Source of the DNA: an uncultured Candidatus Peribacteria bacterium
Lineage (GTDB): Bacteria > Patescibacteriota > Gracilibacteria > Peribacterales > Peribacteraceae
Assembly: GCA_964466635.1 (NCBI GenBank)
Contig: CAYXNG010000001.1
Span: 42,958 to 106,957 of the forward strand
Length of the DNA: 64,000 bases
Direction: 5' to 3'
The first letter of the stretch is position 1. Each line of letters starts with the position of its first letter. The translations under genes and the position numbers were made by a program. Shown in pieces: positions 5,857 to 62,876 of the stretch. The notes below the pieces were generated by a model, which ran no database searches, was not told where the DNA came from, and was given only the letters and a program-made list of their open reading frames with translations.

Positions 5857-5931
5857 GCGGGTATAGTACAATGGCTAGTACGTCAGCCTTCCAAGCTGAA
5901 TATACGGGTTCGATCCCCGTTACCCGCTCCA
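5857..5931 (+). tRNA. tRNA-Gly(TCC)
   Basis: Hand-folded cloverleaf: acceptor GCGGGTA/TACCCGC, anticodon loop CTTCCAA, T-loop TTCGATC, encoded CCA. Confidence 0.9.
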
Positions 5932-7485
5932 TACTGTAGAAACAACCTCCGAACGCAGACTTTTGCCAGTCCCGACCATGCTTTTTGCTGGTTCGAACAT
6001 AGCGATTTCCTTTGCATATCTTTTTTTAACCTCCTTAAGTACAGAAGGTACAAATAGTGGATCGTAATTAAGGTTTCTCCCCTGTATTTTCCAGTTCGAA
6101 CCGATGCCGCTTACAACAGCACGCTTTTGTTCGGGAGAGCCGCACGTAAGGATGTGCTGTGCATTGAGAATGAGATCGAGACTATCACTGATATTGGCAT
6201 TGGATGTCTGGCGTTCTTTTCTGGCCGTTTCTAGGTCTTCCTGAGCCGACTTCTGTTCGACTCTCAACTGATTCAGTCTTCTCTTCATGAGAGCGCGTGT
6301 ATCGGGATCTGATTCCTCTGCAATATTTTCTTCAATGGTCGTAATTTTCTTGGAAAGAACAGATAAATGCTGCTGTAGCTGTTCCTCTTTTATCGTTTCT
6401 TTAGTAGAAGCCCCCATTTGCTCAAGCTGTCGTATACCAAAGCGAATGATCTCCTCAGGGATCATATACGATTCAGCTTCTGCCATGATTTTCGTCACAA
6501 GAGCGTCAGCTGAAAGTGGCTTTTCGTTGCAGCGGATCGCACGTTTTCGGTGGGCGCAGCGGTAGTAATCAAAATCCTTTGTGATGTTCAGTGATTTAAT
6601 GTGCTTTGTCTTCCGCTCAGCAGTTATACAAGCATCACAGCCGCCGCAACGGAAAAGCCCCTTGAGAGGAAAGTTGAGGATGCGGTCACGCGTCCCTTTG
6701 CCATCCTTGAGAAATGACTGCGCCTGTTCAAACTCGGTCTGAGTAATCATCGGCTGATGACTCCCAACATGTAGCTCTCCCCTCCAACGGAACAGGCCGC
6801 AGTAAAAAGGATTTTGAAAGAGCGCGTGAAAAGTGGAAAAGGCCAGAAGCTTTCCATTTCTGTAGATCGGGCAATGCTCCTGCATATGTCGGTACAGCTG
6901 CATGGTGGAACATTGTTCATCGAGTAGCTTTCTCCATAAAGATTGGATGATCGGAAAAAGAACAGGATCAGGAAGAATGCGCTTCTGACCTTTTAATGCC
7001 TCGACTTCATTACGATAACCCATCGGGGCTTTGCAGGGCATCCACCCTTTGTCTGTCTTGCTAGTCATGCCTCGCTTCACATCGGTACTGAGCTTGCGTA
7101 CATAGTCCGTGGAGCGTCCTGTTTCAACGGAGAGCAGGATTGAGCTGTCATCGGGGTAATACGTGCGCTCAGGTGTAATGATCGCTTGGATGATGCTCTT
7201 CTGAAGCATCCACATGAGTTCGCCGGAATCTTTAGGGTTCCGGCTCAGGCGGTCAATGTTCCAACAAAGGATTACATGCGCTTCACCCCGCTTGATACGC
7301 TCGATCATGGACATGAATCCAATACGCCCAACGTCCTTTGCAGATTTCTGATCCTCGATTATATCCACGATCTCACATCCTCGATCTCTCCCTATACGAT
7401 GCAGCGCATTTATCTGATCGGGAATTGACTGGATTTGCCGCGATTTATCCTCGGTAGATTTACGAGCGTAGAGGAAGCACCTCAT
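5920..7485 (-). CDS. large serine recombinase/integrase
   Basis: 521 aa. It has an N-terminal resolvase catalytic domain (YARKSTEDKSRQ...DRLSRN), a recombinase domain, a Cys-rich zinc-ribbon (CGGCDACI...YYRCAH) and a coiled-coil tail. Confidence 0.9.
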   Translation of the reverse strand: MRCFLYARKSTEDKSRQIQSIPDQINALHRIGRDRGCEIVDIIEDQKSAKDVGRIGFMSMIERIKRGEAHVILCWNIDRLSRNPKDSGELMWMLQKSIIQAIITPERTYYPDDSSILLSVETGRSTDYVRKLSTDVKRGMTSKTDKGWMPCKAPMGYRNEVEALKGQKRILPDPVLFPIIQSLWRKLLDEQCSTMQLYRHMQEHCPIYRNGKLLAFSTFHALFQNPFYCGLFRWRGELHVGSHQPMITQTEFEQAQSFLKDGKGTRDRILNFPLKGLFRCGGCDACITAERKTKHIKSLNITKDFDYYRCAHRKRAIRCNEKPLSADALVTKIMAEAESYMIPEEIIRFGIRQLEQMGASTKETIKEEQLQQHLSVLSKKITTIEENIAEESDPDTRALMKRRLNQLRVEQKSAQEDLETARKERQTSNANISDSLDLILNAQHILTCGSPEQKRAVVSGIGSNWKIQGRNLNYDPLFVPSVLKEVKKRYAKEIAMFEPAKSMVGTGKSLRSEVVSTVWSG

Positions 7486-8542
7486 AGGGGGATAAGGGTA
7501 GCTGAGGAACTAACATGAAAACAGCTCGATGAGTTCGAACCTGTTCCCAGTAGGGGTATGGCGTTTGATCAGCCGAATAAAGCAAAAGAACTTGGAGAGG
7601 ATCAACGCCCATGCGAAATAATGTCTCGCTGCGAGTGATGAACTGCTTTATGTGCGGTATCCTCTCATGTTTCAATTTTGCAGCTGCCAATTCTTCAGGA
7701 TGGAGCATCCGACCTGTTTTTTTGGCTATGGTGAGCCGTTCGATTTTACTGAAATCCAAACCTTTAAGCGGATGAAAATATGTCCCCTGTTCATTCATGC
7801 AGAGGGACGCGAAATACTGCTGAAGAACCTCCACTCCTAAAGAGTCACCGTTGATACGTGATTCCTCATAACGAATGACGATCTCTGGCGTAATGCCCAT
7901 TTGCTTGATGGTTTTTGTGTGCAGCTCTGCCTCAATTCTGGTTACCGTTTCTTCATCTAGGTAATGTGAAAACAGCAAAAATTTCTCTTTCTTGTACGAA
8001 TCGGCTTTCTTGTCATACACCCTGATTAAATACTTTTTGTTACCTTTTTTCATACCGAGATAGAACGATTCGATGTCGTCACCGTTGATGTACGGAATCT
8101 TCTTACGAAACTGCGTCTTATGCTTCTTCCACAGCTTCAATACAGGGACATTACAATCAAGAGCGATATCAACACGAGACAACGACAGGAACGGCAGATA
8201 CTGTGATGTGAACTGCAACAAACACTCTGACAATTCTTCGAAGTAGAAATACGAACCATCGAATAGGAACGTATACGGGACATGGTCGGCAATACCCATC
8301 CCCATGTTTTTTACCAAACAGAACACTCTGTAATGACCATGATTGAAATTCAGAATGCGCTCAGACTTCGTTTCGTTGTATGTCACAGTAAATGAATGAC
8401 CGAGGAATCCCACATTTAATTTCTGTGGTGAGTTTTCTGATAGACCTTCGAAAAGATACGCGAAAGAGTTACCACGGAAGGTTCCACTGAAGTTGTAGCG
8501 GATGCAGTCGAAGCCTAAGCGGAAAACTCGAATATCCATCAT
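7460..8542 (-). CDS. Rep_trans-type replication initiation protein
   Basis: 360 aa with Rep_trans-family (pT181 RepC-like) motifs: LSRVDIALDC, YLIRVYDKKADS and VTRIEAELHTK. Confidence 0.65.
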   Translation of the reverse strand: MMDIRVFRLGFDCIRYNFSGTFRGNSFAYLFEGLSENSPQKLNVGFLGHSFTVTYNETKSERILNFNHGHYRVFCLVKNMGMGIADHVPYTFLFDGSYFYFEELSECLLQFTSQYLPFLSLSRVDIALDCNVPVLKLWKKHKTQFRKKIPYINGDDIESFYLGMKKGNKKYLIRVYDKKADSYKKEKFLLFSHYLDEETVTRIEAELHTKTIKQMGITPEIVIRYEESRINGDSLGVEVLQQYFASLCMNEQGTYFHPLKGLDFSKIERLTIAKKTGRMLHPEELAAAKLKHERIPHIKQFITRSETLFRMGVDPLQVLLLYSADQTPYPYWEQVRTHRAVFMLVPQLPLSPYEVLPLRS

Positions 8543-8798
8543 GAAAGGTGGTCACCGTGTTACTTCACGGTGACCTTGAAAGCATCCGCAGGCGTCGGGC
8601 GCGGCACCGCAGGTGCTCGCGCCCTGCCGCACAGCGGCAAGCAGGCCGAGGAATGCCGTCAGCTTCTTTGCCGCCTCTTCTGGAGGCAGCGAAACGCCAT
8701 AGTGCTTCTCATAGAGAGCACCGAATTTCGAGATGGCCGAAGCTGGCGGCGTGGGAAGTAACACGCCGCTTTTTGTAGATCGGGCAGACTTTAGAAGC

Positions 8799-9599
8799 TC
8801 ACGATTGCTGTTTTTGGTACTGGTTCAGCACCGATTTTGTGAAAGGCTCTGGGTTATAGTGCTTCTGAAAATAGACATATCCCTCCGACTGATCGACATA
8901 TGCGTAACGATTGAGCCTATCGCCCTGTTGCAGCTTCAGGGTCTTGAGATAATCGCTCGGCTTGAATTTCTGATGTTCCGTAAGCGGTATGACATCGCGT
9001 AGCTGCTCGAAGGAAATGCATGTGCCAGCGAGTTTCCAGCACTCATCGAAGAACGCACGAACAGCACCCGTGGATTGTATTTTATGGATCTTTGTCTCTT
9101 TGCCGTTATCAATCTCAATGAGATTAATACAAAGACCGACTGGCCGAGCAATGAGGCGACGAGGAAATTTCTCCGAATCAACCGTCTGCTTTTGGAATAA
9201 TTTTTCTCCGAACGTAAGGGCAATAACCATGCCACCGAATGTACGCAATTCATCGGGTGCGACGATGTGGATTTTTCCGTTCTTCACTTCGATCAAACCT
9301 CCGATCTGCAAGTAACCGATGGCAAAATCCCGATGCTCTTTGCTCTTTTCAATCGGGTATTCGGGAATGTCTGCATATAAGTACGGATCAAGAAACTGCT
9401 CCTGCTTGTACATCGAATAGACGTACAGATTCACCAGCAAGCCCATAACTGCTTGCTGCTGCGGTTCCGTAAGCGTGGCGTATTTGGTCAGCAGAATCGT
9501 GGCGTTGTCTCTGTTGAATGAAACACCCATCTCCAAGGGCATCTCAGGCACATGCTTCAATATCTCATTCGCCAACACATGTTTGATGGAATGCTCCAT
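8799..9599 (-). CDS. hypothetical protein (element-borne)
   Basis: 266 aa ORF with coding-like composition, in the same operon orientation as rep and the recombinase. No family recognised. Confidence 0.5.
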   Translation of the reverse strand: MEHSIKHVLANEILKHVPEMPLEMGVSFNRDNATILLTKYATLTEPQQQAVMGLLVNLYVYSMYKQEQFLDPYLYADIPEYPIEKSKEHRDFAIGYLQIGGLIEVKNGKIHIVAPDELRTFGGMVIALTFGEKLFQKQTVDSEKFPRRLIARPVGLCINLIEIDNGKETKIHKIQSTGAVRAFFDECWKLAGTCISFEQLRDVIPLTEHQKFKPSDYLKTLKLQQGDRLNRYAYVDQSEGYVYFQKHYNPEPFTKSVLNQYQKQQS

Positions 9600-9637
9600 G
9601 GAATAGATGACTCTACTCCATTTCCCTGTTTAAGCAA

Positions 9638-9946
9638 TTATTCGTTATGCCACCACATGAGAAAGCGTCCGTAACCGTAGGCGATGAAGCTGATGAGAAT
9701 CATGATGCCGACGATGCTCATACCCGTGTTTGGCGTCATGATAGAACCGCCAGTATCCGAGAAGGTGAAGAACGCCAAGCAGATCGCAAGAAAGAAAATG
9801 ACGTTGGAAATGACGATGATCAATTTGTCCTTCTTTCGATGAAGCTCAATAAGCATCGGCTCTGAAGGCCTTTCAATGACCCTTTCAATAACTTTTGGCC
9901 TTGGTGCTGAACCGACATCGGACTGTGTGAATTGTTTGTTTTTCAT
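9638..9946 (-). CDS. small membrane protein (element-borne)
   Basis: Starts at MKNKQFTQ (ATG 9946) and has two predicted TM helices. The longer ORF-track start would overlap the divergent XRE gene. Confidence 0.45.
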   Translation of the reverse strand: MKNKQFTQSDVGSAPRPKVIERVIERPSEPMLIELHRKKDKLIIVISNVIFFLAICLAFFTFSDTGGSIMTPNTGMSIVGIMILISFIAYGYGRFLMWWHNE

Positions 9947-9956
9947 GCGTATATTA

Positions 9957-9980
9957 TACACCCCGAAGTATCGGGGTGTA
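9957..9980. promoter_or_regulatory. perfect 10-4-10 palindrome in the divergent promoter region (candidate XRE operator)
   Basis: The sequence tacaccccga-agta-tcggggtgta lies between the membrane-protein start (9946, -) and the XRE start (10012, +). Confidence 0.4.
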
Positions 9981-10011
9981 AAGCTGAATTGGCAAACGCG
10001 ATACTCTGTGC

Positions 10012-10227
10012 GTGCCTTTAACAGCAGCACAGAAATTGGCAAAACGAATAAAAGAACTGCGAATTGAGCGTGGATGGACGCAGGAAGAGGCTGCCAAGAA
10101 ATGTGGCATTAAATACAAGTATTACCAAGAACATGAAAGCAGCACTCCTAGAGACATGCGGTTGAGCACAATGGAAAGGGTCTCCAAAGCGTTTGGGGTA
10201 TCCATATCGGAGCTTACGGATTTTTAG
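10012..10227 (+). CDS. XRE-family helix-turn-helix transcriptional regulator
   Basis: 71 aa. The segments LAKRIKELRIERGWTQEEAAKKCGI ... VSKAFGVSISEL form a classic HTH_3 pattern. Confidence 0.8.
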   Translation: MPLTAAQKLAKRIKELRIERGWTQEEAAKKCGIKYKYYQEHESSTPRDMRLSTMERVSKAFGVSISELTDF

Positions 10228-10267
10228 ATTTTTCTCTGCAATCTAAAACGCCGACTCTTAGCTGTTC

Positions 10268-10759
10268 TCATGTCTTCGGTAATGTTTCCTCTAGCATTTT
10301 TTCCGCAAGTTTTTGCGCCCATCGTTGTACCCGTTCTTCTTGGCCATAGGGCTCATTGACGATGATGAGCGGCGGCACAAAGAGCATGCCATTATGCTCC
10401 CGTATATATCGCAATAGATGCTCCGTACAGCGTGTGCGGAAATAGTAGCGGTCATCGCCTAAGCTGATGCATGTCATAGGCTTCTTCATGAAATCCACTG
10501 TTGATGCTTTTTGGTGTACAAGATCGTGCATATACATATTCAACTGTCCTTCGATACCTCCCGTGTTCCATGTACCTGATCCGAGAATTACCACATCCCC
10601 GCGCAGCAGATCTTCTGCCGTTGCCTGTTCTGCACGTTGCCTCTCGAAAGAGAGTGTAGGCACATGTTCTTTCATGTACTGTTCCACCGTATCCACTACA
10701 TACTCTGTGTGGCCACTGGTCGAGGCATAGATGATGTGAAGGGATGATAGATTGCTCAT
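10268..10759 (-). CDS. flavodoxin-like protein
   Basis: 163 aa with FMN-binding N-terminal motif IIYASTSGHTE and flavodoxin-like alternation (VILGSGTWN). Its start overlaps the DsbB stop as ATGA. Confidence 0.7.
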   Translation of the reverse strand: MSNLSSLHIIYASTSGHTEYVVDTVEQYMKEHVPTLSFERQRAEQATAEDLLRGDVVILGSGTWNTGGIEGQLNMYMHDLVHQKASTVDFMKKPMTCISLGDDRYYFRTRCTEHLLRYIREHNGMLFVPPLIIVNEPYGQEERVQRWAQKLAEKMLEETLPKT

Positions 10760-11322
10760 TGCACCAGGTTATTCTTTGATCGGATGATGGCCAGAGATCC
10801 GAGGATGTTTAACAGAAATACCGTCCACGCCATCATGGGGATGGTAATATAGCCGAAATGGAAGAAAGGCGTTGAGCGGCAAGATGTACCCGATGTGTCA
10901 CAAGGAACATTAGGATCAATCTCTGTGGGAAAGAGTGCGGCAGATACCTGTTCGCCATAGTGCAAAGTCGCAATCAACAGCCCAATAATAGAAAGTACGA
11001 GAATATATGGGGCAATACCCTTATCTTTCTTCCATAATGCGAGTGCCAGCAGAACAACCTGCGGATACATGAAAATGCGCTGGAACCAACACAGTCTGCA
11101 TGGCGTCCATCCTGCGACTTCGGAGAAATACAAACTCCCCACGGTAGCGATGGATGCAGTGATGAGCATGAGCGTCATGCCATGCTTTGATACCCACTGG
11201 AGAAGACTGCTAGAGGACAGGACAGACCTACGCATGAGCATCACGGCAAGCACCATAGCGATTGCCTGCCCAATGACAGTGAGGGCTGATAATGCGCTGA
11301 CGATGGTTTGTGTATATTCCAT
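10756..11322 (-). CDS. disulfide bond formation protein B (DsbB/BdbC family)
   Basis: 188 aa with 4 TM helices, a CRLCWFQR motif in the first periplasmic loop and a second Cys pair (CDTSGTSC). Confidence 0.75.
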   Translation of the reverse strand: MEYTQTIVSALSALTVIGQAIAMVLAVMLMRRSVLSSSSLLQWVSKHGMTLMLITASIATVGSLYFSEVAGWTPCRLCWFQRIFMYPQVVLLALALWKKDKGIAPYILVLSIIGLLIATLHYGEQVSAALFPTEIDPNVPCDTSGTSCRSTPFFHFGYITIPMMAWTVFLLNILGSLAIIRSKNNLVQ

Positions 11323-11355
11323 AATGGCGAAAGGGTAAGTGGATGATAGTGGTTT

Positions 11356-11898
11356 TTACTTGGGCGGCTCTTGCTGGGAAAAATGCTCATAGGACACCAT
11401 TGATTCGAGCGGACGCCTATCTTGATCTCCATGCGGTCTTACAGGACCCTTGGGGTAGCCTAAGGCAAGGCTGCCAAGAATTTTATGGTGGTCGGGAATG
11501 GAGAGCATTGTTCTTGTGGCCGCATCATCCAATGTCACCCAGCAACCGCCCAACTCAAGGCTGGTTGCAGCGATCCACATGTTTTGCATGGCGCATGCTG
11601 CACTAAGAATGTGCTGCTCATGCTCCGACAGCCACGCATCCACTTTCGCCTCTTTGGTTACGGTAACGACAATCACTACGTTCGCACGAGACAGGAATTG
11701 CCCATGACGTGCGTGTTCCATTAATTTCCCAATAGTCTCTGCGTTGCGTATCACCGTAAAATGCCATGGTTGCGAATTCAAGGGGCTTGGTGAGAATCTG
11801 CCTGCTTCCAGTATCTGATTAAGAATATCCTGCGGAACCTCCTGATCGGTCCAATTGCGGACAGCTCGCCGTGTGAGAATCGTGGTAAGTACGTCCAT
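11356..11898 (-). CDS. nitroreductase family protein
   Basis: The segment ILTRRAVRNWTDQEVPQDILNQILEAGRFSPSPLNSQPWHF is a typical nitroreductase N-terminus. Confidence 0.8.
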   Translation of the reverse strand: MDVLTTILTRRAVRNWTDQEVPQDILNQILEAGRFSPSPLNSQPWHFTVIRNAETIGKLMEHARHGQFLSRANVVIVVTVTKEAKVDAWLSEHEQHILSAACAMQNMWIAATSLELGGCWVTLDDAATRTMLSIPDHHKILGSLALGYPKGPVRPHGDQDRRPLESMVSYEHFSQQEPPK

Positions 11899-11967
11899 AT
11901 GCTTGGATTATATTATTCCCTTGTAGCATTACCAGTTCCGAATAAGCTCCAGTATCCCGCTCCATAA

Positions 11968-12270
11968 TCACTTCAGCATCTGTCGTATCCGTTCCTCACT
12001 CGGTTTCACAAACGGATTACACCGCAGAATCCGCCACACACTTAACGGCACCCCAACTATCACACCCCGCTTACTGATCACGTCTTTTGCATACGCTGAG
12101 CAGGTAGGGGAATGGCGGCAGTAGCCGTAGGGATGCAGGTGCTTTAGCGGTCCGTGGTCCGGCGACAGCGTGTGTTGATAGCCGGTGATTAACCACACAA
12201 GTACATTGCGGGGCAGATGGACAATGTGGCTTGCCATGAGCGAAGCCGAATGGTGCAAGAGATTGCGCAT
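11968..12270 (-). CDS. yidD: membrane protein insertion efficiency factor YidD
   Basis: The motif YQHTLSPDHGPLKHLHPYGYCRHSPTCSAYA is the YidD signature. The start is trimmed to an internal ATG (12270; 12237 is also possible). Confidence 0.75.
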   Translation of the reverse strand: MRNLLHHSASLMASHIVHLPRNVLVWLITGYQHTLSPDHGPLKHLHPYGYCRHSPTCSAYAKDVISKRGVIVGVPLSVWRILRCNPFVKPSEERIRQMLK

Positions 12271-21974: not shown

Positions 21975-23003
21975 ATGGCTTTTTCTTGGACCACAACGCC
22001 GCGCCCCATCATCGCGCTCGCCCCCATGGCGGGCGTAACCGATGCGTCTTATCGCCAGCTGATCAAGCGTGTGGAGCCGCGGACTATCGTCTACACCGAA
22101 TTTTTGAGTACCGATGCCCTCGCATTCAAAGGAAAGAAGACAATGCAGATGATGGCGTTTGACGCGAGTGTCGAGCGACCGTTCATCGTGCAGGTGTTCG
22201 GACATGATCCGGAACATTTTCTGGAGGCTGCCAAAATCATCGAACAGTGCGGAGTCGACGGGATCGATATCAACATGGGCTGTCCCGCTGCAAAGGTGGT
22301 TTCCAGCTGTCATGGGGCTGCACTCATTCGCAAACCGGAGCTTGCCGCGGAGCTTGTTTACGCGACAAAAAAAGCAGTGCAGATTCCCGTCAGCGTGAAG
22401 ACGCGTCTTGGCTGGGAAACATCGGATACGCTGATTCCTTTTTGTCAGGCACTGGAAGCTGCGGGGGCAGAAGCATTCGCGATCCATGGCCGAACCTATC
22501 ACGAGAAATTCACCGGCAAAGCGAACTGGGAACCGATCTACGAATTGAAGAAACATGTGAAGGTCCCGGTGATTGGCAATGGTGATATCGGCTGTGCGCA
22601 GGACGCGCTCGATAAAATCGGGAATCTGGACGGGGTGATGGTCGGTCGCGGCACCTTTGGTAACCCGTGGGTGATGAAAGATGTGGCGGACGCATTGGCC
22701 GCTAGCCACCAGCCGCTAGCCACTAGCCATGAAACAAATCTAGAAGCCAGAAGCCAGAAGCCAGAGGCTCCTTCGATCTATGTTCCGACTGTGCACAAAC
22801 TGACCTTTGAGGAAAAAATCCCTTTCATCCTCGAGCATTGCGAATTGGCCGTTCGTACTAAAGGAGAGAAGAGGGGAATGCTGGAAATGCGACGGCACTT
22901 AGCAAGCTACGTCAAAGGGTTTGATGGCGCATCGGAGTTGCGGCAGAAGCTTGTGAGAGTGGAGACGATTACTGAGGTTGCGGAGATTCTGCAGGCTGCT
23001 TAA
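21975..23003 (+). CDS. dus: tRNA-dihydrouridine synthase
   Basis: The motifs LAPMAGVTDASYR ... INMGCPA ... GRGTFGNPW are present. The gene contains the in-frame repeat cassette at 22701-22769. Confidence 0.85.
   Translation: MAFSWTTTPRPIIALAPMAGVTDASYRQLIKRVEPRTIVYTEFLSTDALAFKGKKTMQMMAFDASVERPFIVQVFGHDPEHFLEAAKIIEQCGVDGIDINMGCPAAKVVSSCHGAALIRKPELAAELVYATKKAVQIPVSVKTRLGWETSDTLIPFCQALEAAGAEAFAIHGRTYHEKFTGKANWEPIYELKKHVKVPVIGNGDIGCAQDALDKIGNLDGVMVGRGTFGNPWVMKDVADALAASHQPLATSHETNLEARSQKPEAPSIYVPTVHKLTFEEKIPFILEHCELAVRTKGEKRGMLEMRRHLASYVKGFDGASELRQKLVRVETITEVAEILQAA
22701..22769 (+). repeat. in-frame bipartite heptamer-repeat cassette inside dus
   Basis: Array gctagcc accagcc gctagcc actagcc, a spacer, then agaagcc agaagcc agaagcc agaggct. 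It encodes SHQPLATSHETNLEARSQKPEA. Confidence 0.8.
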
Positions 23004-27913: not shown

Positions 27914-29053
27914 TCACGAAGCCATCAACTGGTCTATTTTTGTATGCAATTGTTGTTCGAACTCGGATCGACGGAACTTTGATGCCTGCTTTTGGCAGTT
28001 CTGTTCTGAGTATTTTTTGTGATCAAAATCCTGCAGAGTTTTCATCAATGAATCGACGGTTTGATCATCGAAGAAGGTTCCGGTCTCGTTATCAATGATG
28101 GTCTCAAGTGCGCCGCCACCGCGGTACGCGATGACCGGTGTGCCACACGCCATCGACTCAACAGGGACGAGGCCGAAGTCTTCCAGTCCAGGGAAGATGG
28201 TTGCCTGAGCGCCTGCATAGAGTGCGCGCAGTTCGTCCGTCGATCGGTATCCGAGAAACTCAATTGTTGGTCCGGCCATCCGTTGCAGTCGTCCGCGATC
28301 AGATCCGTCACCGACAATCTTCAGAGGAAGAGTGAGTTTGTTGCACGCCTCGATCACAAGATCGATCTGTTTGTAGCGGGCGAGAGTGGAGACGATCAGA
28401 AAGTACGGAGCCTCTAGTCTCTGGCCTCTAGCCTCTGGCTGTATGTTGTTACTCGTGGCTCGTGGCTCGTGGCTCGTGGCTACAAAAAACGAATTATCAA
28501 TTGGTGGATAGACGACATCACTCCTACGTTCCCAGTACAGTTCGATGCGGCGTTGGACTTCCTTCGATGCAGCCAGAATCATGTCTGCGCGTTGTGCGGC
28601 TTCGGTGTCCCAGACGCGGAGTGTGTGAAATGTCTGACTGAGATACCACCGTGCGAGTGGATTCGCTCTCTTTTGCACCGCATGTGTCTGGTCCCACAGG
28701 TAGCGAGCAGGGGAGTGAACGTAGCTGAGGTGTTTCGGCTTGCTGTTGGTGATAATGCCGTGGGCAAATGCCGAGCTGGAGCTGATCACCAGATCAAACT
28801 CGCTGAAATCCCACGACTCGACCGCTCGCGGAAACTTGTTCAGGTACAGATGATGGTTATGACCGAGGAAGGAGGAGCTAGGACCTAGCGTTGCTGTTCG
28901 TACGCGTTCGCTGGGAAACCAATCGCCCAACTTCTTTTTGTCGTAGAGCAGCGTGTAAATCGGCGCATCCGGGAACATATCGGCCAGAATGCGCAGGACG
29001 TTTTCGGCTCCGCCTTTCATCGTCAAAAGCTCATGAACTAACGCTACCTTCAT
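27914..29053 (-). CDS. glycosyltransferase family 4 (GT-B)
   Basis: The C-terminal domain carries EDFGLVPVESMACGTPVIAY. The gene contains the in-frame repeat cassette at 28409-28480. Confidence 0.85.
   Translation of the reverse strand: MKVALVHELLTMKGGAENVLRILADMFPDAPIYTLLYDKKKLGDWFPSERVRTATLGPSSSFLGHNHHLYLNKFPRAVESWDFSEFDLVISSSSAFAHGIITNSKPKHLSYVHSPARYLWDQTHAVQKRANPLARWYLSQTFHTLRVWDTEAAQRADMILAASKEVQRRIELYWERRSDVVYPPIDNSFFVATSHEPRATSNNIQPEARGQRLEAPYFLIVSTLARYKQIDLVIEACNKLTLPLKIVGDGSDRGRLQRMAGPTIEFLGYRSTDELRALYAGAQATIFPGLEDFGLVPVESMACGTPVIAYRGGGALETIIDNETGTFFDDQTVDSLMKTLQDFDHKKYSEQNCQKQASKFRRSEFEQQLHTKIDQLMAS
28409..28480 (-). repeat. in-frame bipartite heptamer-repeat cassette inside the GT4 gene
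   Basis: Sense strand: (agccacg)x4, spacer agtaacaacatac, then agccaga ggctaga ggccaga gactaga. It encodes ATSHEPRATSNNIQPEARGQRLEA. Confidence 0.8.
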
Positions 29054-30477: not shown

Positions 30478-30553
30478 TGGTGGGTCGGGCGGGACTTGAA
30501 CCCGCGACCAAAGGCTTAAAAGGCCTCTGCTCTACCGACTGAGCTACCGACCC
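30478..30553 (-). tRNA. tRNA-Lys(TTT)
   Basis: Hand-folded: acceptor GGGTCGG/CCGACCC, anticodon loop CTTTTAA, T-loop TTCAAGT, encoded CCA. Confidence 0.9.
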
Positions 30554-30609
30554 AAAATGTGAACCGAGTGAATGCTCAACTCACTCGACGAGCTTAATTG
30601 TTTTCTTTT

Positions 30610-30651
30610 CGGTTCCGCAAGCGGAACCGGGGCGACTGAGCTACCGACCCA
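30610..30651 (-). pseudogene. tRNA-Lys 5' fragment (through D-loop G18) fused to a CUUG-capped hairpin
   Basis: 19 nt at 30633-30651 are identical to 30536-30554 of the intact gene. On the tRNA strand they are followed by ccc and the hairpin cggttccgCTTGcggaaccg (30610-30629). Confidence 0.65.
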
Positions 30652-50277: not shown

Positions 50278-50320
50278 ATATGTCACGGTAGCTCAGTAGG
50301 CCTAGCCTCGCTTGCGAGGC
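50278..50320 (+). pseudogene. tRNA-Met 5' fragment (through D-loop G19) fused to a CUUG-capped hairpin
   Basis: 23 nt at 50278-50300 are identical to 50371-50393. They are followed by cctag and the hairpin gcctcgCTTGcgaggc (50305-50320). Confidence 0.65.
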
Positions 50321-50374
50321 GTTAGGAAACAACTAACCGCGACATTAGAATCTTTTACAGCTTCAAGGCCATAT

Positions 50375-50451
50375 GTCACGGTAGCTCAGTAGGTTAGAGC
50401 GCGGGACTCATAAGCCCGAGGTCGCCGGTTCAATTCCGGCCCGTGACACCA
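50375..50451 (+). tRNA. tRNA-Met(CAT), elongator-type (Ile2/lysidine not excluded)
   Basis: Hand-folded: acceptor GTCACGG/CCGTGAC with a G1-C72 pair, anticodon loop CTCATAA, T-loop TTCAATT, CCA. Confidence 0.85.
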
Positions 50452-50467: not shown

Positions 50468-51058
50468 TCAATGCCACCACCACGGTACATCCTGAGGTGG
50501 TGTTTTATCGTACCCCTTGAGTAATTCCGTATGTTGCTTCAGATATTCTTTTGCCCAATCTTGTATCAATACATCTCGCCGAGTCAGATAACCAACTGGC
50601 GGAGGGGGATCAAGAATTTGTTTCTTGTACAAGGATTGGTAGATACCACCCATCACATCCACATTCTGAGATGTGACATCTTGGAAAATATATGGTGCAA
50701 GGAATTCCTTCTCGCCATGAGTTAATTCATGTAATGCCTTTTCTCGTCCTGCTTTTTGCAGAATTGGAGTACTTCGCACTTCAGGTGGTCTGTGTTGCCT
50801 AGTCTGAACACTTGTTTCAACTTCTTTTTTAGAAACCGTTTCAGGCTTAATCGTTATTTCTGTCTTAGGAGAAACAAAAAGTAGAGTTATAGAAAGAATA
50901 ATGGCTGCACCAAGAACAGTATAGTAAGACCCTATTCCTTGTGATCCAATAAAGGGAACTGAAAAAACAGCAACAAGCATTAGTACCCCAAGGCAAACAA
51001 AAGCTCTAGCTAACGGAGGTAAAGTCAGTACATATTTAACTGCAAATTCAGGAACCAT
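50468..51058 (-). CDS. hypothetical membrane protein in an AT-rich patch
   Basis: 196 aa with two N-terminal TM helices. No family recognised. It lies immediately 3' of tRNA-Met. Confidence 0.45.
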   Translation of the reverse strand: MVPEFAVKYVLTLPPLARAFVCLGVLMLVAVFSVPFIGSQGIGSYYTVLGAAIILSITLLFVSPKTEITIKPETVSKKEVETSVQTRQHRPPEVRSTPILQKAGREKALHELTHGEKEFLAPYIFQDVTSQNVDVMGGIYQSLYKKQILDPPPPVGYLTRRDVLIQDWAKEYLKQHTELLKGYDKTPPQDVPWWWH

Positions 51059-51097
51059 TGACTTAGAGACTATCAGGATTTAATCCTCCAATTCAAT

Positions 51098-51448
51098 TCA
51101 AATCAACGCAAACAGACTCAATGCCATGAACAGCAGGCCAATATCGCGGACGGCAATGTCGTTCCAGCCGGTTTGCGTCAAAATTGCGAGTAAGTGCAGC
51201 GCAATCAGCACTGTGCCTGTTTGGCGAATAATCCGGACAGGAATGAGGATGAGCAGAGCGAGCAGTATTTCTGCGATGCCGATGAGAATCAGCCAGCCAT
51301 TGCGGCTAAATGTTAGGAGTCCTTCCATCCACAGCGGAATCCAGCCGATCCAGTAGTCCGGATGCACGAGTTTGTCGATACCGAAGTAGCCGAACACGAA
51401 TGCCAGGCCGATTGTCAGAAGCAGATTTGGCAGTCCTTTTCGTTGCAT
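51098..51448 (-). CDS. DoxX-like small membrane protein
   Basis: 116 aa with 4 TM helices and a DoxX-like N-terminus (FGYFGIDKLVHP). Confidence 0.5.
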   Translation of the reverse strand: MQRKGLPNLLLTIGLAFVFGYFGIDKLVHPDYWIGWIPLWMEGLLTFSRNGWLILIGIAEILLALLILIPVRIIRQTGTVLIALHLLAILTQTGWNDIAVRDIGLLFMALSLFALI

Positions 51449-51495
51449 AGGTCTTTAGCCTAGCCTAGGCTCCTTCTATTCGCATTTCTTTTCCG

Positions 51496-52008
51496 TTGTT
51501 TCTTCCTATGAAACCTCGCTCCGCATCTATTCTCGCACTCTCCGCATTACTGCTCGCTGCGTGCAATGCGCAGGCGCCAACCGGCACTTCCAGTGAGAGT
51601 TCATCGTCGTTCAGCAGTGAAGAGGCAACCATCATGATGCCGTACCTCGATGACGGTTCATCGTCATCCGACTCCGTCGAACTGAACATCAACTCGTCCG
51701 CAGCCGCAGCCAGTCAGCAGACGAACAATGGTCAGACGCGCGTCATCACTATCAATGTGACAGACTGGGAATTTAGCCCGTCCATGATTGCGGTTGCAAA
51801 GGGAGAGAAGGTTCAGCTCAAGCTTGTCGGTGGAACAGGTATTCACAGCTTTGCCGTGCCGGGGTTGGGCATGAACGTCCGTATAGAGCCTGGTCAGACA
51901 GTCACAGTCGATTTGCCGACAGATGCTACTGGAACGTTCGATGCATCATGCCGCATTCCGTGTGGCCCGGGTCATAAAGATATGAAGGCGACGATCATTA
52001 TTTCGTAG
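51496..52008 (+). CDS. cupredoxin-domain lipoprotein with CuA-type ligand spacing
   Basis: Lipobox (LSALLLAAC), a Ser-rich linker, then a cupredoxin fold with H...C-x3-C-x3-H-x2-M (GIHSF...CRIPCGPGHKDM), the same spacing as in COX2 CuA. Confidence 0.65.
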   Translation: MFLPMKPRSASILALSALLLAACNAQAPTGTSSESSSSFSSEEATIMMPYLDDGSSSSDSVELNINSSAAAASQQTNNGQTRVITINVTDWEFSPSMIAVAKGEKVQLKLVGGTGIHSFAVPGLGMNVRIEPGQTVTVDLPTDATGTFDASCRIPCGPGHKDMKATIIIS

Positions 52009-53962: not shown

Positions 53963-55267
53963 CTATTTAAGCAATTCTATGCAGCGGCGGAATTCGTCGC
54001 CTTTTTCCTCGAAATTCTTGAACATGCCATAGCTGGGGGAGGCGGTGGAAAGAAGAACAATCGGAGTGAAGCCACTGGCCTCTAGCTTCTGGCCACTAGT
54101 TTTCTCGACAGCTTTATCCATTGAATCTACGTCGATTAGCTCTGCAGTAGCACCTGCAGCTATCAATGCTTCGCGGATGCGTGGGCCCGAACCGGGAAAG
54201 AGGAGAATCAGTTCGATCGAAGATTCTTTGATGCGATTGGCAAGTGAGGTGAAGTTGTAGCCGCGGTCTTGTCCGCCAAGAATCATGACCCGAACCCGAT
54301 CACCGAGTGCGTCGAGTGCGGCGATGGCGGATTCCGGCGTGGTCGAGATCGCGTCATCAATCCACTCAATGCCGTGGTGCACGCCAAGCGATTGCAGGCG
54401 ATGCGGGAGCGGAGTGAATCGTCGCACTGCGTCGAGAGCTGTTTTTCCGTCTACACCGAGACTTGCTGCAACCATGCACGCTGCGGCGATGTTGCTGCGG
54501 TTGTGATCGCCGATGAATCGCGTCTCGGACAGATCAATCGGACAGTCGTCGGCGGAGAAGGGGATTTTGCGTCCATCACCCTCTTTCGCGATCTCTATCG
54601 ATCCCTTCATCGTATCGTTAAAGAAGACGAGATCGTCGGCCTGTTGATAGCGGGTGATGTGTTTCTTGGCTTCCAAATACGCTTCTTCCGAACCATGGTA
54701 ATCGAGATGTTCGGGGAAGAAGCTGGTGATAACGGCGATGTGCGGACTGTTCGTCAGATTCATCAGTTGATAGCTGCTCATTTCCATGACGATGATTGTT
54801 CCCGTTTTGACATCATCGAGATGTGCAATGGACGGTTCGCCGATGTTCCCTGTCAAAATTGCATCCTTGTTTGCCGTCCGCAGAATCGTGTAGATCAAGC
54901 TCGAAGTTGTGCTTTTGCCCTTGGATCCGGTGACACCAATTGTCACTGCACCGCGATCGGCAATCGTATCGAGGAAGATTTGCGTCGATGACGTTAATTG
55001 AAAATTGAGAATTGAAAATTGAGAAAGAGCATGAGGGGTGATGCCGGGAGATTTTATGACAACATCAAATTTATTAAGATCCTTGAGCCAATCAGATCCT
55101 AATTGGGTTCGTAATTTTCCATTATCAATTATCAATTTTTCATTCTGGTCGGCAATCGTAATCTCACACTGCGGCGCATGTTTCTCTAATGCTTCAACCA
55201 TCGCTTTGCCCTCGCGCCCGTAGCCGAGCACGCAGACGGTTTTGCCGTTGAGGTCGGAGATCTTCAT
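53963..55267 (-). CDS. murD: UDP-N-acetylmuramoylalanine--glutamate ligase (MurD family)
   Basis: The motifs VLGYGREGKA and GVTGSKGKSTTSSLI and the Mur ligase C-domain are present. It carries three repeat-derived in-frame segments (54071-54099, 54996-55024, 55113-55144). Confidence 0.85.
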   Translation of the reverse strand: MKISDLNGKTVCVLGYGREGKAMVEALEKHAPQCEITIADQNEKLIIDNGKLRTQLGSDWLKDLNKFDVVIKSPGITPHALSQFSILNFQLTSSTQIFLDTIADRGAVTIGVTGSKGKSTTSSLIYTILRTANKDAILTGNIGEPSIAHLDDVKTGTIIVMEMSSYQLMNLTNSPHIAVITSFFPEHLDYHGSEEAYLEAKKHITRYQQADDLVFFNDTMKGSIEIAKEGDGRKIPFSADDCPIDLSETRFIGDHNRSNIAAACMVAASLGVDGKTALDAVRRFTPLPHRLQSLGVHHGIEWIDDAISTTPESAIAALDALGDRVRVMILGGQDRGYNFTSLANRIKESSIELILLFPGSGPRIREALIAAGATAELIDVDSMDKAVEKTSGQKLEASGFTPIVLLSTASPSYGMFKNFEEKGDEFRRCIELLK

Positions 55268-62658: not shown

Positions 62659-62735
62659 GGGCGACTAGCTCAGCTGGTTAGAGCGCGACACTGATAATGT
62701 CGAGGTCGGCAGTTCAAGTCTGCCGTCGCCCACCA
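62659..62735 (+). tRNA. tRNA-Ile(GAT)
   Basis: Hand-folded: acceptor GGGCGAC/GTCGCCC, anticodon loop CTGATAA, T-loop TTCAAGT, CCA. Confidence 0.9.
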
Positions 62736-62753
62736 TTCACTCCCACTCAATAA

Positions 62754-62864
62754 CGACTAGCTCAGCTGGCCCTGTTTCGCTTGCGAAACAGTATCAATAA
62801 GCGCGACAACTGCGTAGCACTGATACTGTCGAGGTCGGCAGTTCAAGTCTGCCGTCGCCCACCA
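62754..62864 (+). pseudogene. tRNA-Ile-like second copy interrupted in the D-loop by a CUUG-capped hairpin insert
   Basis: It shares cgactagctcagctgg and the last 38 nt with the intact copy. It lacks the first three acceptor nucleotides. A 30-nt insert follows the GG (ccctgtttcgCTTGcgaaacagtatcaata) and about 11 extra nt lie before the anticodon loop. Confidence 0.6.
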
Positions 62865-62876
62865 TCATCCGATTAC

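Follow-up and report, generated by a model that had tools for sequence, protein, structure and literature searches.

A recurrent hairpin-bearing element beside tRNA genes of Candidatus Peregrinibacteria/Peribacteria

RESULTS

Three tRNA genes with hairpin-bearing partial copies

The stretch of DNA analysed here (hereafter, the window) comprises 64,000 nt from an uncultured Candidatus Peribacteria bacterium (GenBank assembly GCA_964466635.1, contig CAYXNG010000001.1, positions 42,958 to 106,957), and by its gene content (ArgRS, MetRS, ClpB, TatD, RecF, RuvB, RuvC, Dus, Mur ligases and type IV secretion parts) it is part of a bacterial chromosome. Seven tRNA genes were identified in it with ARAGORN and Rfam, three of which, those for Lys, Met and Ile, have a partial copy of themselves nearby that is associated with a short hairpin-bearing element, the subject of this report (Table 1). 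A first-pass annotation, made by a model from the letters alone, had reported the same CTTG-capped hairpin after a 5′ tRNA fragment at all three genes, and this is borne out in the sequence. The exact direct repeats are 19 nt long and spaced by 97 nt at Lys, 23 nt and 93 nt at Met, and 16 nt and 92 nt at Ile, and the distance from GCTCAG to the octamer CGCTTGCG at the hairpin apex is 12 nt in all three copies. The GG|CC junction said to be common to the three loci does not hold at tRNA-Lys, which reads G18|CCCC, with a C at position 19, although the spacing there is unchanged.

The covariance model that had been suggested as a check was built as a 33-position model of the junction and hairpin (R1), with which the window was scanned on both strands with filters off. 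Exactly three copies were found, at tRNA-Lys, tRNA-Met and tRNA-Ile, scoring 41-45 bits (E ~1e-12), and the next best score in the 64 kb was 10 bits. The remaining three CGCTTGCG octamers of the window lie in coding sequence and are not hairpins.

Table 1. Positions of tRNA genes, tRNA fragments and element parts in the window (F1 and F′, partial tRNA copies; E, element; H, hairpin; X, post-hairpin region, with parts Xa and Xb)
Feature	Position	Strand	Basis
tRNA-Lys(TTT), intact	30478..30553	-	ARAGORN, Rfam
Element E at tRNA-Lys, 78 nt: CCC-CGGTTCCG-CTTG-CGGAACCG, A-rich AAAAGAAAA, X (~45 nt after AAAAGAAAA)	30555..30632	-	R1 41.6 bits
F1 at tRNA-Lys, exact 19-nt copy (1 nt + tRNA positions 1-18)	30633..30651	-	Repeat search; 17 nt after native TATAGT -10 box
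F1 at tRNA-Met, exact 23-nt copy (4 nt leader + tRNA positions 1-19)	50278..50300	+	Repeat search
Element E at tRNA-Met: CC-ta-GCCTCG-CTTG-CGAGGC-g, X	50301..50370	+	R1 43.2 bits
tRNA-Met(CAT), intact	50375..50451	+	ARAGORN, Rfam
tRNA-Ile(GAT), intact copy 1	62659..62735	+	ARAGORN; Rfam tRNA model 69 bits
Spacer ttcactcccactcaataa, 18 nt, Xb-like, between tRNA-Ile copies	62736..62753	+	Sequence comparison with Lys element
F′, exact cgactagctcagctgg, tRNA-Ile positions 4-19, ends G18G19	62754..62769 (=62662-62677)	+	Repeat search
CC + hairpin H CTGTTTCG-CTTG-CGAAACAG, 8 bp, CUUG tetraloop on tRNA strand	62770..62791	+	R1 45.1 bits
Xa tail tatcaataagcgcgacaactgcgtagca, including the '11 extra nt'; homologous to Lys and Met post-hairpin regions	62792..62819	+	Alignment
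Pseudo-copy 2, 3′ part, tRNA-Ile positions 32-76, single change A38C	62820..62864	+	Repeat search; sub-threshold Rfam tRNA match 16.4 bits

Anatomy of the element and its hairpin

In the usual layout, the 5′ fragment F1 (tRNA positions 1-19) is followed by the hairpin, by the region X and by a second copy of F that continues into the intact tRNA, the period being 88-106 nt. F1 runs from 0-4 nt before +1 to G18/G19, with an exact copy of 13-23 nt across loci. The duplicated block begins at the mature tRNA 5′ end, with at most 1 extra nt in the majority of loci and 4 extra at Met and Asp. The element proper (E) is 70-85 nt long and consists of CC, 0-2 nt, a hairpin over eight pairing positions and a variable X of ~50 nt, in which a conserved G, an A-rich stretch (U-then-A-rich at the Arg loci) and a GCTCG-like motif (at -34 to -42 relative to the tRNA start) are followed by ~35 variable nt and the tRNA. 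X always adjoins +1, the RNase P site, and all host tRNAs carry the canonical TAGCTCA(G/A)NNGG D-arm. In one locus (L011; loci from other genomes are given by such numbers where they need telling apart) the acceptor part of F1 is decayed, and in L002, L003, L007 and L040 the whole unit is present in at least two tandem copies. The first-pass annotation was right about a recurrent structured element with a shared D-loop breakpoint, though the element is hairpin plus X, 70-85 nt, and not the 30-nt hairpin alone. Its lead case, tRNA-Ile, is a genuine member but an atypical one, as the normal E lies upstream of the intact tRNA.

The hairpin loop is usually CUUG, and all copies lie in tRNA orientation; as an RNA motif, a CUUG tetraloop with a closing G-C pair has special stability, and it is present on the tRNA-sense strand only. 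Two styles of stem occur, one with 6-8 Watson-Crick pairs and the other with 3 bp, tandem G·A/A·G and another 3 bp (e.g. L006, L008 and L011). Over 12 copies, the stem covaries: changes on both sides are found in six of the eight stem pairs, 82% of the stem cells are paired vs 59% in shuffles, and the covariation score is 0.549, against 0.16 in shuffles and at most 0.20 with slid partners. The compensatory changes noted earlier from three copies are thereby confirmed. Furthermore, the Arg-TCG hairpins of L002 and L025 differ by one compensated C-G to G-C pair. Besides the hairpin, no conserved helix was found with RNAalifold. A pairing of a retained 3′ acceptor strand with F1 was considered and rejected, being suggestive for Met and Arg-TCG, with p ~0.1 in a test over all loci and the hairpin alone recovered by RNAalifold. 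At Arg-TCG (L002), Arg-TCT (L003) and L025 the hairpin is followed by UUUU(A)U, which resembles an intrinsic terminator. When the window hairpins were tested as intrinsic terminators, no U-run followed any of them (the next bases are AAAAG, UUAGG and UAUCA) and none was predicted in the scan; promoter and terminator scans at the three window loci yielded nothing useful.

Distribution across genomes

The exact pattern TAGCTCAGNNGSCCN6CGCTTGCG was scanned against one genome per species, for 185,579 species, and matched 12 times. Ten matches are in Candidatus Peregrinibacteria/Peribacteria, while the remaining two (Acidobacteriota and Clostridia) have no tRNA context; about two chance matches of the exact pattern are expected by our own estimate. 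The tRNA-linked element is, in this survey, restricted to that lineage. All ten Peregrinibacteria matches have the order F-H-X-F-tRNA and lie upstream of the tRNA (the gene in L007 is interrupted by a scaffold gap), which is Arg-TCG, Arg-TCT, Met, Trp (twice), Val, Lys, Asp or the L007 gene, which we take to be tRNA-His from its G-1 and discriminator C. Four further matches were obtained in metagenomes, one of them a new locus (Arg-TCG, L025) and the others re-found; relaxing the metagenome pattern to allow TGGCTCAG brings ~16 chance matches. No pattern match was found in viral contigs or phage records.

Protein-anchored loci added loop variants that fall outside the pattern, namely a tRNA-Lys (L040) with the apex CTGGC-GAA-GCCGG and a tRNA-Arg(CCG) in L043 with the hairpin GCTCCGC-GCA-GCGGAGC (R1 21 bits). 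By our count, ~6 of the 26 tRNAs in protein-anchored loci have the element, and a tRNA that is filled in one genome can be empty in another. A further locus obtained in this way lacked tRNA-Lys, and the exact protein of the window's own neighbour gene had no record. No copy of the hairpin or of X apart from tRNA fragments was found in ~250 kb. A lack of further copies and loss of the pattern in relatives, which the first-pass annotation gave as grounds against its own reading, are clearly not what is seen: copies occur in many Peregrinibacteria, beside at least 10 tRNA types. Three coincidental decayed duplications with chance hairpins, a reading with which the small copy number in the window would agree, do not account for the same junction, spacing and hairpin in at least 10 independent genomes and at ten tRNA types, nor for the E-value obtained with R1, and we reject this reading as next to impossible.

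Inserted material, family relationship and conservation

In L041/L042 and L043, tRNA-Lys begins 11-13 nt after a TATAGT box, whereas in the window the TATAGT box is followed, after 17 nt, by F1-H-X, and the real tRNA lies 97 nt further downstream. Since the relatives start the tRNA there, F1 marks the ancestral position of the tRNA, and the hairpin, X and the second F are extra; the element is inserted material. The comparison of loci proposed earlier for strains, made here between relatives, does reveal empty sites at tRNA-Lys (L041/L042 and L043), and single tRNA-Ile sites as well. Moreover, the post-hairpin regions are alike at different tRNAs, with similarity scores of 16 for Arg-TCT vs Lys, 15 for Lys vs Arg-CCG, 14 for Met vs Trp and 14 for L007 vs Arg-CCG, where the 99.9th percentile of the null is 13. 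Aligned examples are AAAAAAGTTCGCTCGTTCGTATCACTC (Arg-TCT) vs AAAGAAGCTCGGTCGTTCG-ATCATTC (Lys), and GTCGATCATTCT--TTCATCAATAT (Arg-CCG) vs GTTGTTCATTCTGATTCATCGATAT (L007). Hairpin and X are therefore one element family and not a locus-specific sequence.

Two other derivations of X were tried and rejected. One takes X for a simple duplication of the native sequence upstream, which is evident in the arrays of L002 and L040, borderline at Met (p ~0.03) and not seen at the other loci, tRNA-Lys of the window among them. The other takes the post-hairpin regions for the decayed rest of the cognate tRNA, with which their local alignments were no better than those of shuffles. Two of the 14 resemble the variable-loop/T-arm of a non-cognate tRNA, a weak lead on the ultimate origin of the element.

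Orthologous modules can be strongly conserved. Between the window and the JAYUSS genome (L004), the Met module has 2 changes in the 19 nt of F1, 0 in the 21 nt of the hairpin and 1 in the next 25 nt; the first 46 nt of E are 98% identical, while roughly half the positions have changed in what remains of X and in the flank upstream. For comparison, the TatD proteins of the two genomes are 87% identical and a fast-evolving neighbour protein is 39% identical. F1 also tracks its own tRNA: tRNA-Lys has CAGTCG in both F1 and gene in the window and CAGCTG in both in L040, and at Arg-TCG, where four positions distinguish L002 from L025, F1 is identical to the gene of its own genome. F1 is thus under concerted evolution with its tRNA, such as recombination between the two copies of F should bring about. 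The conservation of F1 is partly a matter of ascertainment at TAGCTCAG; positions 1-7, which lie outside the pattern, are identical in 10 of the 12 loci.

The tRNA-Ile locus and its second copy

At tRNA-Ile the order is opposite to that at Lys and Met, with the intact gene upstream and the partial copy (copy 2, 62754-62864) downstream. The first-pass annotation had stated that copy 2 keeps cgactagctcagctgg, lacks three acceptor nucleotides (the initial GGG, G1-G3) and has CC and the hairpin right after G18G19, and these statements hold. The shared 3′ block that it had described is also present, but measures 48 nt, not 38 nt (a direct repeat of 62818-62865 vs 62689-62736, 98% identity, detected by repeat search), covering tRNA-Ile positions 29-76. 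In copy 2, tRNA positions 20-31 are replaced by 50 nt, and the 'anticodon loop' has 18 nt. The '~11 extra nt' before this loop do exist but are not a separate insertion: together with the hairpin tail they make up 28 nt 3′ of the hairpin that align colinearly with the Lys element (CAA-TAAGCGCGACAACTGCGT--AGCA vs CAATTAAGCTCGTCGAGTGAGTTGAGCA, p=0.007). The spacer between the two copies, in turn, opens with TTCACTC, which is exactly the 7 nt immediately after the aligned block in the Lys element; taken alone this match has p=0.075, and its weight rests on its colinear position. Because both the 28-nt tail and the TTCACTC spacer are colinear with the Lys element, the 81 nt between the 48-nt repeats read Xb-F′-H-Xa. 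By its order the block is a circular permutation of the usual H-Xa-Xb-F, and the Ile locus is a rearranged and atypical member of the family.

Copy 2 had also been proposed to be spliced or processed into a functional tRNA. The insert does lie inside a recognisable tRNA copy, the 3′ 45 nt of which are almost identical to copy 1. However, an exon-joining test failed, as G1-G3 are gone and 50 nt stand in place of positions 20-31, copy 2 obtained no ARAGORN call and only 16.4 bits with Rfam (threshold 29), no intron family matched, and an intact copy lies 18 nt upstream. In addition, a close relative whose neighbouring protein is 77% identical to that of the window (L033) has one ordinary tRNA-Ile gene and no copy 2. 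We consider an intron-containing or specially processed gene extremely unlikely and reject it; to judge from its letters, copy 2 is a dead pseudogene. Since L033 lacks it, the Ile arrangement would be young or easily lost; tRNA-Ile is single in L036, L037 and L038 too.

A different pseudo-fragment was seen 5′ of tRNA-Ile in another relative (L035:11518-11576), where gggcgg, ct, a hairpin (ATCCCGC-GCCT-GCGGGAT), ggttagagcgc (tRNA positions 18-28) and 22 nt precede the intact gene, so that the hairpin lies 5′ and not 3′ of G18G19. This different partial duplication suggests that the tRNA-Ile locus has been struck more than once.

DISCUSSION

Insertion into the D-arm as the preferred explanation

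Our preferred, though tentative, explanation, to which we would give somewhat less than an even chance, is that these are small non-coding insertion elements in tRNA genes, specific to the Peregrinibacteria and selfish or near-neutral, which are put in place by a D-arm-specific trans-acting insertion that duplicates its target. Such an activity would recognise the D-arm, cut there, insert E and duplicate ~19-23 nt of the target, so that the gene would be regenerated downstream and the old 5′ fragment, F1, left beside the native promoter. Transcription from this promoter would then read through the element, and RNase P would strip everything 5′ of the tRNA, so that the insertion would cost little and be tolerated. 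Unequal crossing-over between the F copies could further give rise to tandem arrays, to precise deletion of the element and to an F1 kept identical to its tRNA. We count in its favour the recurrence within one lineage, the family likeness of the post-hairpin regions, the empty sites of relatives, the patchy presence, the tandem arrays, the tracking of each tRNA by its F1, the lack of copies apart from tRNA fragments in ~250 kb and the uniform orientation.

Several points weigh against this proposal. No reverse transcriptase, transposase or tyrosine integrase was found in the 64-kb window, the element has no terminal inverted repeats, and a target duplication of 19-23 nt is unusual for bacterial transposons. 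The permuted layout at tRNA-Ile cannot be obtained by one simple insertion. In L002, L040 and, weakly, at Met, the post-hairpin region copies sequence upstream of F1, and part of X may therefore be locally duplicated leader and not imported DNA. Copies within a genome are quite diverged while orthologous copies are strongly conserved, and stems are maintained by compensatory changes, a pattern more in keeping with a function for the host or with very old insertions than with a recent spread of selfish DNA. Finally, most loci were found with a pattern that requires TAGCTCAG and a CTTG apex, which makes for ascertainment.

The conservation pattern leads to the main rival, a host-beneficial RNA module in which F1 and the hairpin (perhaps with ~25 nt more) would be kept by selection, whatever their origin. 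In one version the module would be a structured 5′ leader, adjusting how the tRNA is transcribed, folded or processed by RNase P; in another, suited to the Arg loci with their U-run, a separate small RNA made up of the single-stranded 5′ 19 nt of the tRNA and a terminator hairpin, possibly a decoy or regulator of something that recognises the tRNA 5′ end or D-arm. The uniform placing of CUUG on the tRNA-sense strand, the two-sided changes and covariation of the stem, the terminator-like U-runs and the near invariance of the Met module between two genomes with saturated intergenic flanks all speak for it, and arrays would increase the dosage of such an RNA. On the other hand, the module is patchy, with about a quarter of the sampled tRNAs filled and the same tRNA lacking it in sister genomes; the three window copies have neither a U-run nor a predicted terminator; there is no conserved pairing outside the hairpin, the acceptor-like F1:X pairing having reached only p ~0.1; the acceptor part of F1 has decayed in L011; and the tracking of the second F by F1 is explained by recombination without selection. 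We regard this module as possible, with a chance of roughly one in four, below that of the insertion element. The two are not exclusive, and a mobile origin could have been followed by domestication.

Enzymes, possible templates and possible integration scars

The first-pass annotation had advised looking for a linked enzyme, but none lies beside the element in the window, where there is only a large serine recombinase at the unrelated tRNA-Gly; likewise, no HUH transposase and no cas domains were found in the window. This absence, as far as reverse transcriptase is concerned, also weighs on an RNA-mediated origin, in which reverse transcription would switch template from the tRNA 5′ end to the 3′ end of the released H-X leader RNA, the cDNA then being fixed by recombination, at one end through the conserved D-arm (TAGCTCAGNNGG) and at the other through the body of the tRNA. 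Such an origin would explain how a common E gains the cognate F at each locus and, if the template were circular or concatenated, the arrays and the permuted Ile copy. It would agree, too, with a duplicated block that begins at the mature tRNA 5′ end (at G-1 in L007) and ends where D-arm identity between tRNAs stops, with the canonical D-arm of every host tRNA and with the constant contact of X with +1. The sharp boundary at +1 could just as well mark where selective constraint on the real tRNA ends, older flanks having diverged, and the young L002 and L040 arrays share at least 50 upstream nt; several steps, none of them observed, would be needed. We therefore hold this origin to be quite unlikely.

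Duplications at attachment (att) sites of phages, integrative and conjugative elements and genomic islands offer a parallel, in that a tRNA segment occurs twice around an insert, one repeat lies in the intact tRNA, and fragments can stack. Direct repeats of this type are present here, exact over 19, 23 and 16 nt in the window and over 13-23 nt at other loci. The copies might then be scars of integrase elements targeting the D-arm, with an attP made of the tRNA 5′ part and promoter, which lost their interior and left a fused attL/attR arm (H...X) between the F cores. The D-arm has dyad symmetry like that of the anticodon and T arms, where integrases of this sort exploit it. Related elements would be expected to have homologous arms at different tRNAs. 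Foreign DNA bounded by direct repeats of a tRNA segment, with an intact tRNA regenerated, is the hallmark of integrating elements (PMC9897764, PMC4383910). Unlike att duplications, however, the insert amounts to just 70-85 nt of non-coding DNA, lacks an integrase and opens with a conserved hairpin; this spacing between repeats is found in all of the more than 16 copies, none of which has genes, and random internal deletions would not yield a constant size. Within tRNA genes, att duplications are known from the anticodon loop, T-loop and 3′ end, and known tRNA integrases restore the 3′ part and not the 5′ part, whereas the element repeats positions 1-19 (only Ile repeats 29-76). With no match in viral contigs or phage records either, integration scars seem to us very unlikely.

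A further possibility is an undescribed process with the tRNA as template or guide, in which a hairpin-led non-coding RNA or DNA would copy itself into tRNA genes at G19, by reverse transcription or single-strand recombination running off the 5′ end, and the units would express 19-mer-CUUG-hairpin RNAs that act on tRNA metabolism, on tRNA-targeting nucleases or on phages; this, too, is unlikely.

Comparison with other known systems

The element is not a member of any named family, as each of the closest analogues fails in at least one defining feature. With miniature repeats, for which miniature inverted-repeat transposable elements (MITEs), REP/BIME, Correia and Rickettsia palindromic elements and mitochondrial GC-cluster/hairpin elements (PMC4478555, PMC2800124) were compared, it shares that it is short, non-coding, hairpin-forming and lineage-specific, and such repeats may sit in or beside genes, RNA genes included. 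In contrast to MITEs, it lacks terminal inverted repeats, an alignment of 15 elements, judged by eye, showing the conserved 5′ CC-hairpin and no complementary 3′ end, and in place of a fixed target duplication of 2-10 bp there is one of 19-23 nt or more that rebuilds the target gene. In contrast to REP/BIME or IS200/IS605-derived repeats, it is not dispersed, with three copies in 64 kb, all at tRNA fragments, and no solo copies in five other loci.

The tyrT locus of E. coli contains 178-bp units, each with the last 19 nt of tRNA-Tyr. There, too, tandem units beside a tRNA gene carry a short terminal piece of it and are made and kept uniform by unequal recombination, but they involve the 3′ end, lie downstream, are known from one locus in one species and have no hairpin element common to many tRNA genes. 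A likeness to CRISPR or guide-RNA layouts exists on the opposite strand, which presents a hairpin and then 19 nt complementary to the tRNA 5′ end, in arrays that alternate a constant hairpin with other sequence; however, the 'spacers' of any one array do not differ, cas or other effector genes are absent nearby, the period is 88-106 nt and the stable tetraloop is in tRNA sense. Unlike tRNA introns (group I or archaeal bulge-helix-bulge), the Ile insert is in the D-loop and not the anticodon loop, the hairpin is 22 nt and no group I core was found.

The earlier statement that no described system has this signature agrees with our searches, in which no Rfam family and no publication matched. Rfam gave only tRNA matches at the gathering threshold and nothing on the element at E<=10, nor did any intron family appear at either level; full-text literature searches brought up no description of a comparable element. 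The Peribacteria genome paper makes no mention of such a feature (PMC4736985), and a review of prokaryotic tRNA gene fragments traces them to integrating elements of kilobase scale and to CRISPR spacers, naming no third source (PMC9897764).

Implications

Few sequences in any genome are as constrained as tRNA genes. Peregrinibacteria have ~46 of them (PMC4736985), and each would be essentially single-copy. If the insertion proposal is true, the element would represent a new solution to inserting into an essential target, by entry at one nucleotide and duplication of the first 19 bases, and a miniature non-coding mirror, at the 5′ end, of the 3′-end strategy of integrating phages. Should the module act as RNA instead, a major lineage of uncultured bacteria would possess a new class of leaders or small RNAs linked to tRNA. 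The element also serves as an easy marker of the lineage and as a natural setting in which to study the concerted evolution of very short repeats. The fragments can mislead tRNA annotation and break assemblies: a scaffold gap (a run of N) lies inside the module array at L007:6240-6330 (minus strand), and the module repeats therefore do break short-read assemblies.

Neighbouring observations

Older distal 5′ fragments of the same tRNAs, with a second, G+C-rich insert of ~34 nt, were seen in L003 (~240-190 nt upstream of tRNA-Arg-TCT), L012:4796-4850 and L025:597-655. This second type of insert lies between C13 and A14, as TAGCTC|C...GG(A)CAGGC|AGYTGG, with a UUCG-type loop in some. Because such C13/A14 inserts were found, at least two types of hairpin insert would accumulate in tRNA fragments. 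A 5′-like tRNA fragment (gctccgTAGCTCAACGGtg) also lies 16 nt downstream of tRNA-Asp (L012:5075-5100). Downstream of tRNA-Arg-TCT (L003), tRNA-Arg-CCG (L040) and tRNA-Lys (L041) there is a sequence of the form CCA-TTCGACT(C/T)...(20-35 nt)...CGCT(C/T)ATGGTAAACCA, the L003 copy of which has an apparent inverted partner ~100 nt further; it may be another tRNA-flanking repeat family.

The large serine recombinase of the window (5920-7485, minus strand; Resolvase, Recombinase and Zn-ribbon) overlaps the 3′ end of tRNA-Gly(TCC) (5857-5931) and is followed by ~6 kb of lower G+C (0.47-0.48 vs 0.53-0.55 elsewhere), the whole region spanning 5857-12000. This is probably an integrated element at tRNA-Gly, unrelated to the hairpin modules. 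Directly 3′ of tRNA-Met, a gene with a SieB (superinfection exclusion) domain lies in a stretch of lower G+C, 0.485 (50468-52000), which may be the edge of another island at tRNA-Met. The window also encodes a dihydrouridine synthase (Dus; 21975-23003), a housekeeping enzyme that modifies U20/U20a beside the insertion point, with no link to the element shown. Finally, three tandem duplications of 14-nt units were noted in the window, CTCGTGGCTCGTGG twice at 28452-28479, AATTGAAAATTGAG twice at 54996-55023 and GCCGCTAGCCACCA twice at 22698-22725.

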